Assembly: GCA_963723515.1 (NCBI GenBank)
Contig: CAVRQT010000003.1
Location: forward strand, 864,001 to 928,000
Source of the DNA: Vulcanimicrobiota bacterium
GTDB taxonomy: Bacteria > Vulcanimicrobiota > Vulcanimicrobiia > Vulcanimicrobiales > Vulcanimicrobiaceae
Direction of reading: 5' to 3'
Length of the DNA stretch: 64,000 nt
Of the stretch, positions 2-4,970 are shown in pieces. The translations under genes were made by a program, and so were the position numbers. Each line of letters opens with the position of its first letter. The stretch's first letter is position 1. The notes under the pieces are model-generated. The model saw only the letters and a list, made by a program, of their open reading frames with translations. It searched no databases and was not told the DNA's origin.

Positions 2-3000
2 GCACAATACGCGAGCTATTTGTTTCCGCAACTCGGTGCAAATCTTGGACTGCAGCATCTTGTTGCGGCGGCGCTCGCGATTGTGGTTTTGGTGTTGCTC
101 TATCGTCGCGTAACAACGGTGACGCTCATCGCAACCGCCCTTGCCATAACGGCGCTCATCACGCTTATCACCGTCATCGCAGCCGGCGCGCCTCATATTC
201 ATGCGGCTGCCTTCTCGTCCCCGAAGCCGCCGAATGCAAGCGCTTTTATGCTTGCGCTCGGGACGGCGCTCGTCATCACTCTCTATGACTATGCCGGTTA
301 CAATAGCGCAGCGCTCATCGGTGATGAGATCGTGGCGCCGGTGCGCACGATTCCGCGATCGATCGTGCTCTCAATTGCAATCATCGCGGCGCTCTACATC
401 CTGCTTCAGGTTTCTGTCTTGAGCGTTGTTCCTTGGCCACAGATTGTCGCTTCAAAATCACAATTCGTTGCTGCCAGCGCGATCGAAAACGTTTGGGGCG
501 CCGCCTCGGCGCGCGTGGTGACCGTACTGATCTTGATCACGGCGTTCGCCTCAACATATGGGGTTCTGCTCGGTTTTTCTCGCATTCCATATGCAGCGGC
601 ACTTGACGACGAATTCTTTCCTGTGTTCGGCCGACTCCATCCGCGCGGCCGATTTCCATATGTCTCGCTGCTGGTAATCGGGCTTTTGGCGATTCCAGCG
701 TGCTTTTTTACGCTTGATGCCGTCATCTCGTTTCTCATCGCGGGAATCGTGCTGATTCAATCGATCGCCCAGATCGCCGCCCTCTTGATCTTCCGAAGGC
801 GGGAAGGGGCGGCTCCGTTTAGCATGTGGCTCTTTCCGATCCCGGCGATCGTCGCGCTGCTCGCTTGGCTTTTCATCTTCTACTCTTCCGGAAAGAGCGC
901 GATGCTCTACGGAACGCTTACGTTGTTGGCGGGTGTCATCGCGTATCTGATCACGGCACGCGTTCAGCGACGGTGGCCGTTCTTGGTGACCGTGGCTCTC
1001 GTAGCGCTTTGCTGCACGGCCGGCCGGCCCGCAAACGCGGCAAGCTTCGGCTCGAGCGCCATCGTGCAGCGCAATGGTTATCCCATTTTCACCGTTGACG
1101 GTAAACCGTTCTTTATCTATGGCGCGGCGTTCTTTTACGAGCGCATTCCGCGGGGGCTCTGGCGACAATCGCTCGTGGCATACAAAGCGCTTGGAATCAA
1201 CACGATCGACCTCTACGTCATTTGGAATTGGCATGAATTGCACGACGGCGATTTTGATTTTACGGGACGCACGAATCCACGCCGCGATCTACGTGGACTT
1301 TTGCAGCTGATCCATCGTTTCGGATTTCATACGATTATCCGGCCCGGCCCCGTGATTCGCAATGAGTGGCGCAACGGCGGCTATCCGGCGTGGCTTCTGG
1401 AGCGCCCGGAATACAATATGCCGCTGCACGACGTGCTCGAAGGGCGCTATCCCGCAACGGCGACCTTGCAGAATGCGCATTCCGATCAAGCAGCCGCCGA
1501 ATGGATGAGCAACTCGACGCATCTCCGCTACGCCGATCGCTGGCTAAGACGTGCGTTGATGGAAGTCGCCCCGTGGGGACGAGATGTGCTTGCGATTGCG
1601 CTCGATGACGATCAAGGCGCGTATCTCAACAATCAAACGTGGCCCGCGGCAAATTTTCAAGCCTACCTTCATCATCTGGCCGGCACGGTGCGATCGGTGG
1701 CCGGGACATCGATTCCGCTCTTCATCAACACATATCAGATGAAGGTCACCGCGTCGGCGCCGGTTTGGGCGTGGGGCAACTGGTATCAAAGCGAGGCATA
1801 TCATCTCGGCGAGCACGACCGTCGCGAGTTAGAGTTTTCCACTGCGCTCCTTGCGACGCAACCGCATCTTCCCGTTATGCAGAGCGAATTTCAAGCCGGC
1901 TGGCTGCAGGGTCCCGATCAGGCGCATCCGCGGCGTGTTGCTCCGGAAAACACCGCACTTGCTTTACACACCTTGCTCCAGTCAGGGACGCGCGGCATCG
2001 TCAACTTTCCGGTTCAAGATACTGTCTATCCCAGCGGCTGGGAAGTGCCGTTTGCGAATGCCTCCTACGCCTGGGATGCGGCTCTCACACTCGACGGACG
2101 GCACAATGCACGGTACCGCCCGACGATGGAGTTCGGGCAGTTGATTTCCAAGTACGGAAGACTTCTCGCGCAGACACATCGCGTTGCGGACGCCGCGATT
2201 GCCTATACCGTTAGCGCGTATGACCCCTTACAACTCAACGATGTTCGGCTTGACCAGGCTGTTACCGCGACCCGCGACGCCCTCACGGATTGCCGCACTC
2301 TGCGCCTAAGCTGCGATCTCGTCGATTTGCGGTACGCAAAGGATCGCGACTTGGAGCCTTACCGCTACCTTGTCGTGCCTCTCGTCAACGCATTGCCGTT
2401 GCAAGCAGCGATCTCAGCGAAACTCAAGCGGCTTGCGCCGCGTGTGCATATCGTCAGCTCGGTCGTCGAGGTGCATCCAGCAAAGCGTGCGGTCAATATC
2501 GCCAATGCCGTATTAAGTGTCAGCAGCGGGAAAGAACCGTTCGGCTTTCTCGATATCGTCAATTACGATCTGCGGCCTCGCTCAACAGGGCCAATACGGA
2601 TGCAACTCACACCAGCCAAGCAAGTGCGTCTTCCATCGGTTCGCCTCGCGGGCGCATCCGGTCTGTTGATTCCGATCAATCTCAGGCCATCAGATGTTGC
2701 GCAAAAAATCGCGGCACGACCAAGCGGACCGCCGACGCAACGACCTTGCCTTCAACCAGCGGCGCTGCTCTTTGCCGGCATCTGTTGGCGACTGCCGCCG
2801 ATCCGTTCCACAGCAGCCGCTCCAAGTGTGCCAATCGCGCGCCGCGTCGATGTAACGCAAGACGGCGAACCGTGGATCCTCCTCGCGAACCCAACGGCCA
2901 CCCTTGGCATCGCCCCGTTAGCCGGTGCGCGAGCGTTCGTCTTTCAAAATGGCCAAAGCGATGCATTTACGTCCACCGGTGCACTGCGTGACGACGTTGA

Positions 3001-3580
3001 TCCCGCACCAACGCCGTCGGCCCGAGACTACATCAGCACGTACACACATCAATTTCCGGCCGGTACCTTCAATCGTGCCTATGACTGTCGGATTCTCAAG
3101 GATGGCGCTCAGACAGCGTGCATGTATTTCGCGCCCGACCTCGGCACGCACTTTGAGCGGGCGATCACCATGCAACCAAAATCGCCGGCCTTTACATTAC
3201 GACTGCGCATGACGTCATCGGACCCGAAAAAACGAGGCGTGTTGCTGAGTGCGCTTTCGATCTCGAGCGCACTATCGCAATTCGTATCAGGAGCAATCAG
3301 CCGCTACACAGCGGGGGCAACGACTCCCGTCATGGACGGCGCTTTTGGATTCTACGATCCGACGACGCGAAAAGTGGCAACGGTCTGCTGGCCGCCACAA
3401 GAGCCGTTACAAGTCAACGTCGATGAGAAACCGGACGCAGCGATCGTGCGAGTCGTCTACCCTCCGGACACTTGGCAGAGCATCACGTTCGGCTATTATG
3501 CGGTTGCTGATCTTACCCAAGCGCGCAGCGTTGTTCAAGAGCTAAAAGGACGCGCATGCGTCGACGCGAACGGGCGGTAA
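2..3580 (+). CDS. APC-family amino acid permease fused to a GH35-like glycoside hydrolase (5'-partial)
   Basis: Frame open from the window edge. Hydrophobic APC segment (YDYAGYN...GDEIVAP.RTIPRSI, SRIPYAAA.D..F...F..LHP) followed in frame by GH35 motifs (F.VDGKPF, GINTIDLYVIWNWHE..DGDFDFTG, IRPGPVIRNEW..GGYPAWL, SEFQAGW). Confidence 0.85.
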   Translation, partial: AQYASYLFPQLGANLGLQHLVAAALAIVVLVLLYRRVTTVTLIATALAITALITLITVIAAGAPHIHAAAFSSPKPPNASAFMLALGTALVITLYDYAGYNSAALIGDEIVAPVRTIPRSIVLSIAIIAALYILLQVSVLSVVPWPQIVASKSQFVAASAIENVWGAASARVVTVLILITAFASTYGVLLGFSRIPYAAALDDEFFPVFGRLHPRGRFPYVSLLVIGLLAIPACFFTLDAVISFLIAGIVLIQSIAQIAALLIFRRREGAAPFSMWLFPIPAIVALLAWLFIFYSSGKSAMLYGTLTLLAGVIAYLITARVQRRWPFLVTVALVALCCTAGRPANAASFGSSAIVQRNGYPIFTVDGKPFFIYGAAFFYERIPRGLWRQSLVAYKALGINTIDLYVIWNWHELHDGDFDFTGRTNPRRDLRGLLQLIHRFGFHTIIRPGPVIRNEWRNGGYPAWLLERPEYNMPLHDVLEGRYPATATLQNAHSDQAAAEWMSNSTHLRYADRWLRRALMEVAPWGRDVLAIALDDDQGAYLNNQTWPAANFQAYLHHLAGTVRSVAGTSIPLFINTYQMKVTASAPVWAWGNWYQSEAYHLGEHDRRELEFSTALLATQPHLPVMQSEFQAGWLQGPDQAHPRRVAPENTALALHTLLQSGTRGIVNFPVQDTVYPSGWEVPFANASYAWDAALTLDGRHNARYRPTMEFGQLISKYGRLLAQTHRVADAAIAYTVSAYDPLQLNDVRLDQAVTATRDALTDCRTLRLSCDLVDLRYAKDRDLEPYRYLVVPLVNALPLQAAISAKLKRLAPRVHIVSSVVEVHPAKRAVNIANAVLSVSSGKEPFGFLDIVNYDLRPRSTGPIRMQLTPAKQVRLPSVRLAGASGLLIPINLRPSDVAQKIAARPSGPPTQRPCLQPAALLFAGICWRLPPIRSTAAAPSVPIARRVDVTQDGEPWILLANPTATLGIAPLAGARAFVFQNGQSDAFTSTGALRDDVDPAPTPSARDYISTYTHQFPAGTFNRAYDCRILKDGAQTACMYFAPDLGTHFERAITMQPKSPAFTLRLRMTSSDPKKRGVLLSALSISSALSQFVSGAISRYTAGATTPVMDGAFGFYDPTTRKVATVCWPPQEPLQVNVDEKPDAAIVRVVYPPDTWQSITFGYYAVADLTQARSVVQELKGRACVDANGR

Positions 3581-3587
3581 GCCGTTA

Positions 3588-3669
3588 GGGGAAGTGGCGG
3601 AACGGTAGACGCAGCCGCCTCAAAAGCGGCCGAGCAAAACTCGTGTGGGTTCAAATCCCACCTTCCCCA
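3588..3669 (+). tRNA. tRNA-Leu(CAA)
   Basis: GGGGAAG/CTTCCCC acceptor stem, GCCGC-CTCAAAA-GCGGC anticodon arm, long variable arm, GGTTCAAATCC T-loop. Confidence 0.95.
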
Positions 3670-3680
3670 GGGCACGAATT

Positions 3681-4970
3681 TTGACTTCAGACGTTGAACG
3701 AACGGTTATCTTTAGTCGGCGGCCGCTGCACGGCAACCTACGTGTGCCCGGCGACAAGTCGATTTCGCATCGGGCTTTGATCGTCGGCGCGGCGCTCTCC
3801 GAGCCGCTTCAAATACAAAATCTCAATACGGGCGCCGATGTTCTTGCAACCGCAGATGCGCTGCGAGCGCTCGGGGCCGCTATCTCGCTCGATGGTCAAT
3901 CAGCGACGGTAACGCCCGCGCATTTGCATGACGCCGCCGAAACGATTGACTGCCGAAATTCTGCTTCAACGGCACGGATGGTTCTGGGTGTTTGCGCCGG
4001 CGCAAATCTCAACGCACGGTTTGACGGCGACGCTGCCTTGCGCCGGCGGCCCATGGAACCGGTGGCTGCGCAGCTGCGCGCTTTTGGCGCACGGATTGAA
4101 ACGGACGAAGGTCTTCTCCCCGTCACGATTTCCGGCACACCGTCAATTCAGACCCGCGACTTTATCCTTTTAGCGCCCTCGGCTCAAATCAAGTCGGCGC
4201 TTCTCTTCGCGGCGCTCTTTGCAAAGACCGCGATCTCAATTGTCAATGACGCAGGCTCCAGAGACCACACCGAGCGCCTCCTGGAGAGTTTCGGTGCCAA
4301 TATTCGCTACGATCGCCGCGCCGTTGAATTCCAACCCGGTGCCTTAAAGGCGAGAACGCTGCAGATTCCGGGCGATTTTTCGGCCGCCGCATTCTTTATT
4401 GCCGGCGCGACGATCGCTCCGGGAAGCGCAATCGTGGTGGAAGACATTGGCGTCAATCCGACGCGCACAGGCCTCGTTGATGCGCTGAACGGAATGGGCG
4501 CCTCCATTTCACTCTTCAACGAGCGCGAATGGAACAATGAGCCTGTCGCCGACATTCGCGTCGAAGCCGCCTTCTTGCGGGGCGCTTCAATCGGCTCAGA
4601 GGTTGCCGCCCGCGCCATTGATGATATCCCGGCGCTTGCCGCGGCGGCCGCACGCGCTACTGGGGTCACACGAATCGCCGGGCTGCGCAGCTTGCGAGAA
4701 AAAGAGTCCGACCGGCTAGCCGTCATTGCGCGCCTGTTGGAGCAACTTGGGATCACGGTCGAAGCGGGCGCCGACGATCTGACAATTACCGGCAACCACG
4801 AAGGGCTACGAGTTGAACCTGTGCTCGTTGATACGGACGGCGATCATCGTATCGCGATGGTTGCTGCGCCGCTAGCCGCTGCAACAGGGCCCGTGATGAT
4901 CGATGATGCGGCGGTGCCGGATGTCAGTTTTCCAAATTTTGCCGACGCGTGGAACGCGGCGCAGAGCTAG
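3681..4970 (+). CDS. aroA: 3-phosphoshikimate 1-carboxyvinyltransferase (class II EPSP synthase)
   Basis: PGDKSISHR, RRRPM, SAQIKSA, RDHTE, KESDRL, DHRIAM, VSFPNF motifs. TTG start chosen because the track start at 3645 lies inside the tRNA. Confidence 0.93.
   Translation: MTSDVERTVIFSRRPLHGNLRVPGDKSISHRALIVGAALSEPLQIQNLNTGADVLATADALRALGAAISLDGQSATVTPAHLHDAAETIDCRNSASTARMVLGVCAGANLNARFDGDAALRRRPMEPVAAQLRAFGARIETDEGLLPVTISGTPSIQTRDFILLAPSAQIKSALLFAALFAKTAISIVNDAGSRDHTERLLESFGANIRYDRRAVEFQPGALKARTLQIPGDFSAAAFFIAGATIAPGSAIVVEDIGVNPTRTGLVDALNGMGASISLFNEREWNNEPVADIRVEAAFLRGASIGSEVAARAIDDIPALAAAAARATGVTRIAGLRSLREKESDRLAVIARLLEQLGITVEAGADDLTITGNHEGLRVEPVLVDTDGDHRIAMVAAPLAAATGPVMIDDAAVPDVSFPNFADAWNAAQS

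Follow-up and report, generated by a model that had tools for sequence, protein, structure and literature searches.

A conserved gene fusion joins a LAT-like permease to a GH35-like enzyme through a predicted internal signal peptide in the Vulcanimicrobiaceae

Solute carriers are almost always stand-alone proteins. In a 64,000-nucleotide stretch of the genome of a soil bacterium of the Vulcanimicrobiota, or Eremiobacterota (GenBank assembly GCA_963723515.1, contig CAVRQT010000003.1, positions 864,001 to 928,000; G000:C3:864001-928000, hereafter the window), we found a single open reading frame (ORF) in which a LAT-like permease of the APC superfamily runs straight into a large enzyme domain with the fold of glycoside hydrolase family 35 (GH35). 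Compared across independent genomes, the permease-enzyme ORF is a genuine, evolutionarily maintained gene fusion. The explanation that we favour, with moderate confidence, is a natural polyprotein that signal peptidase I would cut, at a signal peptide internal to the chain, into a permease and a periplasmic enzyme.

A permease and an enzyme share one reading frame

On the forward strand, the frame from 2 to 3580 is stop-free for 1192 codons and ends with a TGA at 3578-3580. The start of the window truncates the gene: the ATG lies 329 nt upstream of it on the genome contig, and the whole ORF comprises 1302 codons (amino acids). The N-terminus of the full-length protein, P0002, reads MIRGVGLRG... 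and agrees with the N-termini of its homologues, so the start is well placed. At the junction, ...ITARVQRRWPF (to 982) is followed by LVTVALVALCCTAGRPANA (983-1039) and then by ASFGSSAIVQ... (from 1040). The initial annotation of this DNA, made by a model from the letters and a list of ORFs, had described one stop-free frame and the same junction text, and both were borne out. The remaining two forward frames have stops at the junction, and an out-of-frame TGA at 987-989 sits within a GTGA arrangement. By Pfam, the part of the ORF that lies in the window matches AA_permease_2 with 80 bits (cut-off 27), and the full-length P0002 has a precomputed PF13520 assignment; the match to Glyco_hydro_35 (PF01301), of 117-119 bits (cut-off 27), covers profile positions 2-107 of 319 only.

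Two genes upstream of the window, one cysteine-synthase/CBS-like and the other cystathionine gamma-lyase-like (L002:967-2378 and L002:2607-3475; G000:C3:858967-861475), each consist of two overlapping ORFs in different frames. These are either indel errors of the assembly or pseudogenes, and they bear on the trust that single frames deserve here. One of two signal peptidase I matches (G000:C2:205268-205760) is likewise made up of two overlapping pieces in different frames, a possible frameshift. In view of the frameshift-like genes and the out-of-frame TGA, we used independent genomes to test the fusion.

The search covered the genomes of 41 relatives, 24 of them other members of the same family. 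Counting as spanning a match that ran from permease residue 1-2 to query residue 709 or beyond, we found a stop-free match from the permease through the junction into the enzyme in 15 of the 24 (G017, G022, G016, G013, G011, G005, G008, G019, G006, G002, G023, G003, G021, G004 and G018), at 50-61% identity. One TAG was reported within the matched open frame of G013, where an ORF scan returned an intact ORF of 1284 residues. In G020, the match passes through the signal peptide and reaches the end of the contig. G020 and G022 are unpublished genomes; they touch the family counts (14 of 23 fused when G022 is set aside) and, for G022, one of the eleven loci described below, and these claims hold without them.

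We also queried a collection of 5.8 billion proteins with residues 300-620 (proteins of 716-2279 aa; 8000 candidates scored), which gave 1233 matches at E<=0.001. Among the best 120 of the 1233, 119 carry both PF13520 and PF01301, and most are 1229-1488 aa long; the sole exception, P0003, is N-truncated, with the permease end still present. Proteins that unite AA_permease with Glyco_hydro_35 thus occur in many independent genomes, whose source names are Eremiobacteraeota, Baltobacteraceae, Vulcanimicrobiaceae and similar, plus one 'Binatia'. In public database matches, the fused proteins are annotated as 'amino acid permease'.

At the level of the DNA, a 151-nt contig from a soil-metagenome run spans window positions 925-1075 with 3 mismatches and no gap. 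This was the one run listed (DNA, stored as contigs, with 0.09 of the sampled words; no RNA run was among those listed), and two of its contigs cover only 925-1075 and 1107-1149; as it is possibly the source sample of the window, it is not independent and adds little. An indel or a lost stop codon that fused two neighbouring genes during assembly would agree with the frameshifted look of nearby genes and of signal peptidase I in the same assembly, and with a GTGA arrangement typical of coupled genes. Against such an artefact, the in-frame junction recurs in the independent assemblies of the related genomes and of the best database matches, the permease homology stays in frame up to WPF, and the public contig crosses the junction without a gap. 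We give the artefact next to no credence: for the family it can be dismissed, and for the source genome it is very improbable. The initial annotation had held that an indel or stop at the junction, or homologues that were all pairs of separate genes, would overturn the fusion; what we found instead was a gapless contig and overwhelmingly single-gene homologues.

The linker resembles an internal signal peptide

The linker reads RVQRRWPF / LVTVALVALCCTAG / RPANA↓AS, that is, a basic n-region, a hydrophobic h-region and a c-region with a small-x-small motif. A hydrophobic stretch with an AxA site had been proposed at about 983-1045, and the n-h-c pattern with its AxA does lie there, at 983-1039. 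To judge how well these features are kept, 127 fused homologues were examined and 126 analysed. At least two Lys or Arg occur within the ten residues before WPF in 119 of the 126, and all 126 retain both the hydrophobic core and a small-x-small site after it. In 108 of them an exact AxA lies 7-18 residues beyond the point where the core starts; over 200 shuffles of the same 126 linkers, the mean was 46.6 (standard deviation 5.2, maximum 62). A lipoprotein signal was considered and rejected, the Cys-Cys of the linker not being conserved and the preceding residue being Leu.

Orthologues in which the two halves are separate genes place a signal peptide at the same point. The stand-alone enzymes of G010, G007 and G015 carry an N-terminal signal peptide before GYPVFTV...FFYER, reading MRLVVLALALAVFAPCAARA↓SD in G010 and MLRRFTVALAALAALAGPGRPAAA↓VP in G015. 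About 20 of 27 'stand-alone' representatives from a library of 1.84 billion proteins start with a signal peptide, and the others are evident truncated gene calls. Stand-alone permease orthologues (G015, G039) end 6-11 residues past WPF. Judged by sequence and position, the linker and the signal peptides with which the stand-alone enzyme orthologues begin are homologous.

The genome encodes a signal peptidase I above the cut-off and a BamA-like protein, and a cultured strain of the Eremiobacterota is described as having a gram-negative envelope with an outer membrane (PMC9758169). Within the enzyme part, the pair Cys874/Cys881 is invariant among the aligned homologues, which fits an oxidising compartment and is therefore a sign of an extracytoplasmic location. 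Taken together, the linker features, the signals of the orthologues, the envelope genes and the cysteine pair support a periplasmic export of the enzyme part. The predicted cleavage, after Ala456, is favoured and unproven.

An AlphaFold2 model of residues 1-1010 has confident domains (mean predicted local distance difference test score, pLDDT, 86) and a predicted template modelling score (pTM) of 0.59. The linker reaches a pLDDT of 55-62 in this context and of 38-44 when folded alone, and its helix is 11 residues long, covering 438-448 only. The model neither packs a 13th helix with confidence nor places the enzyme confidently on the carrier. A prediction of the complex of permease (1-437) and enzyme (457-1010), both entered as alignments and without controls, returned an ipSAE of 0.00 in two runs, a value that speaks neither for nor against a contact.

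The permease is related to LAT-type carriers

Residues 1-437 constitute a 12-helix APC carrier that ends with the basic tail RVQRRWPF; in the AlphaFold2 model, 12 long helices lie between residues 7 and 431, at pLDDT 80-94. A profile of 48 homologues, compared with the PDB, matched xCT (7ccs_B, E 1.3e-42), BasC (6f2g, 1.9e-32) and LAT1 (6jmq, 1.8e-31) from transmembrane helix (TM) 1 to TM12, and more weakly GkApcT (1e-24) and AdiC (5e-21). Profile positions 2-441 align to xCT residues 41-471, and the TM1 G-x-G and TM6 Y-x-Y-x-G-Y motifs line up with their xCT counterparts. An NCBIfam scan of the permease gave no model at its cut-off (TIGR00911, 104 bits against 701.8; NF008466 FrlA, 94 against 800, E 8e-27), and therefore no substrate was assigned to it. 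BasC and FrlA, a fructoselysine/psicoselysine transporter, belong to the same superfamily and represent the closest subfamilies, although the FrlA score is far below cut-off. By these profile comparisons, the permease is related to the LAT/FrlA families and lies outside the named equivalogs.

The enzyme has a GH35-like fold and an unusual active site

The enzyme part, residues 457-1302, was modelled by AlphaFold2 from 48 sequences with a pLDDT of 86 and a pTM of 0.89. It comprises five segments: a (β/α)8 barrel, an α/β domain, a small β domain, a disordered Pro/Ala-rich stretch and a C-terminal β-sandwich. The barrel, GH42-like middle domain and terminal β-sandwich foreseen in the initial annotation agree with this model and with the structural matches. 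By VIA-align, the model superposes best on the archaeal exo-β-D-glucosaminidase GlmA (5gsl_A; Z 36.9, root-mean-square deviation 3.2, 501 residues aligned), followed by the Ignavibacterium glucosyltransferase IaSGT (7vky_B, Z 34.9), classical GH35 galactosidases (Z 31-35; human 3thc_A, 33.2), and GH42 and GH164 enzymes (Z 27-29); Foldseek returned 7vkz at E 8e-26. GlmA and IaSGT superpose on the barrel, α/β and β domains, through model residue about 570-580. Matches to PDB sequences (8oug, 5gsl, 6jow and 5gsm; E about 1e-32) are confined to the first ~110 residues of the barrel.

Catalytic residues were mapped through alignment with library proteins and the positions of strands in the model, and not through an inspected superposition. 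In an alignment with P0262, which carries canonical GH35 motifs, QVENEYG corresponds to IALDDDQG of the window protein and AEY to SEF; strand 4 ends at model residues 202-208, and strand 7 is formed by model residues 298-303. D646 falls at the place of the GH35 Asn and D647 at that of the acid/base Glu, and both aspartates, like Q648, are present without exception in two alignments, of 48 and of 47 homologues. The predicted nucleophile, Glu739 in SEFQAGW, aligns with the Glu of AEY in P0262, follows the acid/base position by 92 residues and is invariant among the aligned homologues. With Asp-Asp in place of Asn-Glu and a further glutamate, Glu490, beside the substrate-binding Tyr, the active site is unusually acidic. 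The DDDQ motif is common to a wider set of library proteins of 1100-1350 residues. In five remote relatives of 1150-1300 residues, P0193, P0195, P0201, P0204 and P0217, the nucleophile Glu has disappeared along with the DDDQ motif, and these are probably non-catalytic GH35-like proteins.

GlmA and IaSGT are the best structural matches, and GlmA shares with the window enzyme an Asp at the Asn position before the acid/base residue. In GlmA, this residue, Asp178, is reported to bind the C2-ammonium of glucosamine, with D178N inactive, and the acid/base is Glu179 (PMC6566704); IaSGT is described with Asn175-Glu176 (PMC8861115). The window enzyme differs from GlmA in having Asp rather than Glu as its acid/base residue and in the distance to the nucleophile, 92 residues against 168, its SEFxxGW motif being spaced as in classical GH35. 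The GlmA model NF041127 scored 119 bits against a cut-off of 1500. Furthermore, GlmA and IaSGT are cytoplasmic, whereas the window enzyme is predicted to be exported and has an extra C-terminal β-sandwich.

The enzyme domain is GH35-like in its fold and in some of its motifs and not a canonical member of the family, with the Asn-Glu pair replaced by Asp-Asp. It is probably still catalytic, as the nucleophile is kept and a carboxylate stands at the acid/base place, and we infer that it favours cationic substrates, for instance amino sugars; it may instead do no more than bind its ligand. Of the GH35 glycosidase named in the initial annotation, the fold and the nucleophile stand and the canonical Asn-Glu acid/base pair does not. 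The C-terminal β-sandwich has no Pfam match, and in the Atlas it falls into hypothetical-protein clusters, with DUF4380 on 11% of one cluster as a weak lead; it contains the conserved pattern GALRDDV...RDYI..YTH.FPAGTFNR.

A polyprotein is favoured over a tethered device

How might such a chain be used by the cell? In the polyprotein that we favour, the ribosome would make a single chain of 1302 residues, of which 1-437 would insert as a 12-helix LAT/SLC7-like APC permease whose basic cytoplasmic tail ends in WPF. Residues 438-456, the putative retained Sec signal peptide of a once stand-alone secreted enzyme, would enter the membrane N-in/C-out and so direct the GH35/GlmA-like enzyme of 846 residues into the periplasm. 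The chain would then be cut by signal peptidase I after Ala-Asn-Ala (456/457), freeing a soluble periplasmic enzyme and leaving the permease with a short 13th hydrophobic tail. Fusion would ensure one-to-one synthesis of the two proteins and their delivery at the same membrane site. Presumably the enzyme would act on a glycoconjugate in the periplasm, and the permease would take up a product that bears an amine, whether amino sugar or amino acid.

Cuts by signal peptidase at an internal signal sequence have precedents in the cytochrome b-c1 precursor FbcH of Bradyrhizobium and in LtaS of Staphylococcus aureus, in which a polytopic membrane part is likewise followed by a hydrophobic segment with AxA and then by an exported domain. 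The partners here differ, being a solute carrier and a glycosidase-like enzyme, and the cleavage here is predicted.

Several points weigh against a cleaved polyprotein. In the 126 fused homologues, the median length of the uncharged run after WP is 18 residues, long enough for some transmembrane anchors. If lineages switch often between the fused and split states, the AxA pattern may in part be vestigial, or be maintained by selection that acts while the genes are split. In every homologue, Asp stands where clan GH-A has its acid/base Glu, and therefore the domain may not be a hydrolase; in the remote relatives, the nucleophile is lost as well. Lastly, the fusion itself is the sole link between the substrate of the permease and the product of the enzyme.

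The first of these points would suit a tethered single-chain device, in which an uncleaved 13th transmembrane anchor keeps the GH35-like domain above the permease in the topology of SLC3-SLC7, the ectodomain capturing or processing a substrate and handing it over directly to the carrier. The best solved relatives of the permease, xCT, BasC and LAT1, are SLC7/LAT carriers, and 12 helices, one further helix and a (β/α)8 ectodomain with a β-sandwich reproduce the layout described for heteromeric amino acid transporters (HATs) (PMC8537225). Physical coupling would also explain better than a benefit of co-expression why the fusion has been kept in many lineages, and the altered acid/base residue recalls the 'fake glycosidase' heavy chains. 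An anchor, however, has no need of the strongly enriched AxA c-region, and the model offers an 11-residue helix at low pLDDT, an overall pTM of 0.59 and no confident enzyme pose. The only invariant cysteines are C52, C874 and C881, none of which is placed so as to form a HAT-like disulfide, within either the linker or the TM3-TM4 loop (115-124). Moreover, the ectodomain is GH35-like and not GH13, and in the split genomes the enzyme works as a free secreted protein while the permease gene is unlinked. We consider the tethered device possible and, on balance, doubtful. The initial annotation had left a choice between a single-polypeptide device and a polyprotein whose internal signal peptide releases the enzyme; the AxA site, the homology of the linker and the lack of a confidently packed helix favour the latter over the former.

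Alternatively, an in-frame TTG (983) or GTG (986), with GGTGG at 972-976, could begin a separate secreted enzyme, the long frame being used in part. The product would open with M-VTVALVALCCTAGRPANA, a plausible though uncharged signal peptide. Since no stop interrupts the permease frame, a full-length chain would be produced all the same. Across the 126 fused homologues, the residue directly after WPF is Ala in 89 and a Met falls within five residues of WPF in 3, so an internal start codon is not conserved, and we regard this reading as highly unlikely. It is scarcely credible that the hydrophobic stretch fails to span the membrane and that the GH35-like part acts inside the cell on imported substrate, as might be suggested by the cytoplasmic location of GlmA and IaSGT, the latter described as having no signal peptide (PMC8861115), and by the conserved neighbouring esterase that lacks an evident one: the stand-alone orthologues have N-terminal signal peptides, a basic tail precedes the hydrophobic core, and both the AxA and the cysteine pair are conserved.

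Neighbouring genes, split forms and evolution

At the fused loci L004-L014, of which L005 comes from the unpublished G022, a divergent CE1/feruloyl-esterase-like esterase and a small secreted protein precede the gene in 11 of 11 cases. The esterase (PF00756; best PDB match 8z91 at 1e-36) is 64-73% identical and has no evident signal peptide, and the small secreted protein has 184 residues and no family. At the source locus, the pair lies on the minus strand just upstream of the window (L002:4024-5654). The same pair adjoins the stand-alone enzyme gene in the split genomes G010, G007 and G015, and both proteins probably act in the same pathway as the fusion. Downstream, 64 nt after the fusion gene, the window encodes an EPSP synthase (aroA; 3645-4970, plus strand; PF00275, E 1.5e-89), a neighbour that recurs at only 2 of the 11 related loci.

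The stand-alone orthologues are 46-58% identical to the respective halves of the fusion and keep the esterase and small secreted protein beside the enzyme gene. They differ in being two genes and in having the signal peptide at the N-terminus: in G007, G010 and G015, a permease of 54-58% identity lies elsewhere in the genome, unlinked to the enzyme gene. Fused genomes have no second permease above about 31% identity among the matches listed.

Two further genomes show other arrangements. In G012 (L018, G012:C18:236500-244000), the halves lie side by side with a frameshift between them, located in the signal-peptide region; this is either a gene fission in progress or an error of the assembly. 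In the 75%-complete G009, the permease end and the enzyme start occur on one contig about 1.1 kb apart (G009:C225:7-645 and 1787-3286), which suggests an insertion or other arrangement at the junction.

To follow the two states, we built a quick maximum-likelihood tree of the enzyme region from 74 chosen rows (52 fused, 22 stand-alone), leaving out rows without the barrel motif or with fewer than 450 residues in the region. Fused and stand-alone states are intermixed, with 17 parsimony changes, at least 13 of them forced by well-supported branches; the 17 changes are hardly below the mean of 19 for shuffled labels. The three genome-verified stand-alone genes occupy at least two separate places in the tree, and the other stand-alone labels rest on gene calls whose upstream DNA was not seen. 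In one clade, the stand-alone enzymes P0264, P0149, P0144 and P0151 open with a permease-like N-terminus and then a signal peptide; P0264 begins MIRGVGLRS and runs straight into the signal peptide. This remnant of a permease N-terminus points to an in-frame deletion of the carrier from a fused ancestor. We infer that the fusion is old in the family and has been repeatedly undone, with the direction of the changes unproven. The features of the gene are collected in Table 1.

Table 1. Layout of the fusion gene in window coordinates, with P0002 residues in brackets.
Feature	Position	Strand	Evidence
First 110 permease codons	G000:C3:863672-864001, upstream of window
APC/LAT-like permease, C-terminal 327 residues (111-437)	2..982	+	Pfam, profile, AlphaFold2 model
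Putative internal Sec-type signal peptide or 13th hydrophobic segment, LVTVALVALCCTAGRPANA (438-456)	983..1039	+	sequence, homologues
Predicted signal peptidase I site ANA↓AS (456/457)	between 1039 and 1040	+
(β/α)8 barrel, divergent GH35/GlmA-like (457-837)	1040..2182	+	Pfam, PDB sequence matches, VIA-align, Foldseek
DDDQ motif, end of barrel strand 4 (D645 D646 D647 Q648)	1604..1615	+	alignments, model
Glu739 in SEFQAGW, end of strand 7, predicted nucleophile	1886..1888	+	alignments, model
GH42/GlmA-like α/β domain and small β domain (838-1010)	2183..2701	+	secondary structure of model
Invariant pair Cys874/Cys881	2291-2314	+	alignments
Pro/Ala-rich linker, low confidence (1011-1053)	2702..2830	+	pLDDT <50 at model residues 574-600
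C-terminal β-sandwich (1054-1302), stop 3578-3580	2831..3580	+	AlphaFold2 all-β, pLDDT about 90

Comparison with SLC3-SLC7 transporters and significance

As described for the animal HATs, in which an SLC7 carrier pairs with the SLC3 protein rBAT or 4F2hc, a LAT-type 12-helix carrier is accompanied by one N-in/C-out hydrophobic segment and a large extracytoplasmic (β/α)8 barrel with a β-sandwich, of glycosidase ancestry and with catalytic machinery that is altered or unproven (PMC8537225). The fusion shares this general plan and departs from it in several respects. HATs are encoded by two genes and have a GH13 ectodomain, whereas the fusion is one gene with a GH35/GlmA-like ectodomain of clan GH-A. 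HATs are held together by an inter-subunit disulfide, for which the fusion has no conserved cysteine. The linker of the fusion, unlike the HAT helix, contains a predicted signal-peptidase site, and the model does not pack it as a helix. The resemblance is one of analogy, without homology between the ectodomains.

A stronger version of this analogy would make the fusion a bacterial single-chain counterpart of SLC3-SLC7, in which a LAT-type carrier touches a glycosidase-fold ectodomain, either tethered or re-docked after cleavage, and the acidic Asp-Asp site binds an amino-sugar or glycosyl-amino-acid substrate, or trims it, and delivers the product directly to the carrier. We consider this improbable. 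If true, it would mean that joining a LAT carrier to a glycosidase-like ectodomain follows a functional logic, one that arose independently of eukaryotes. The physiological role of glycosidase homology in the HAT heavy chains is described as still open (PMC8537225), and the fusion parallels this unexplained pairing in animals.

No description of a permease-GH35 fusion was found in the full-text literature, with subscription journals, CAZy, TCDB and InterPro outside the search. The building blocks are already known, as is the principle of an internal signal peptide. What appears to be new is that a LAT-like carrier is combined with a GH35-like enzyme, that this combination is conserved in a phylum with few cultured members, that it has apparently been split repeatedly, and that the active site is Asp-Asp. 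The last of these marks out a large GH35-related clade in which Asp-Asp stands for the Asn-Glu catalytic pair. The gene also offers a test case for the production of a polytopic membrane protein and a secreted enzyme as a single chain, and for the ease with which such genes come apart again. For the Eremiobacterota, a widespread and barely cultured soil phylum, the fusion hints that both proteins act on the same pathway.

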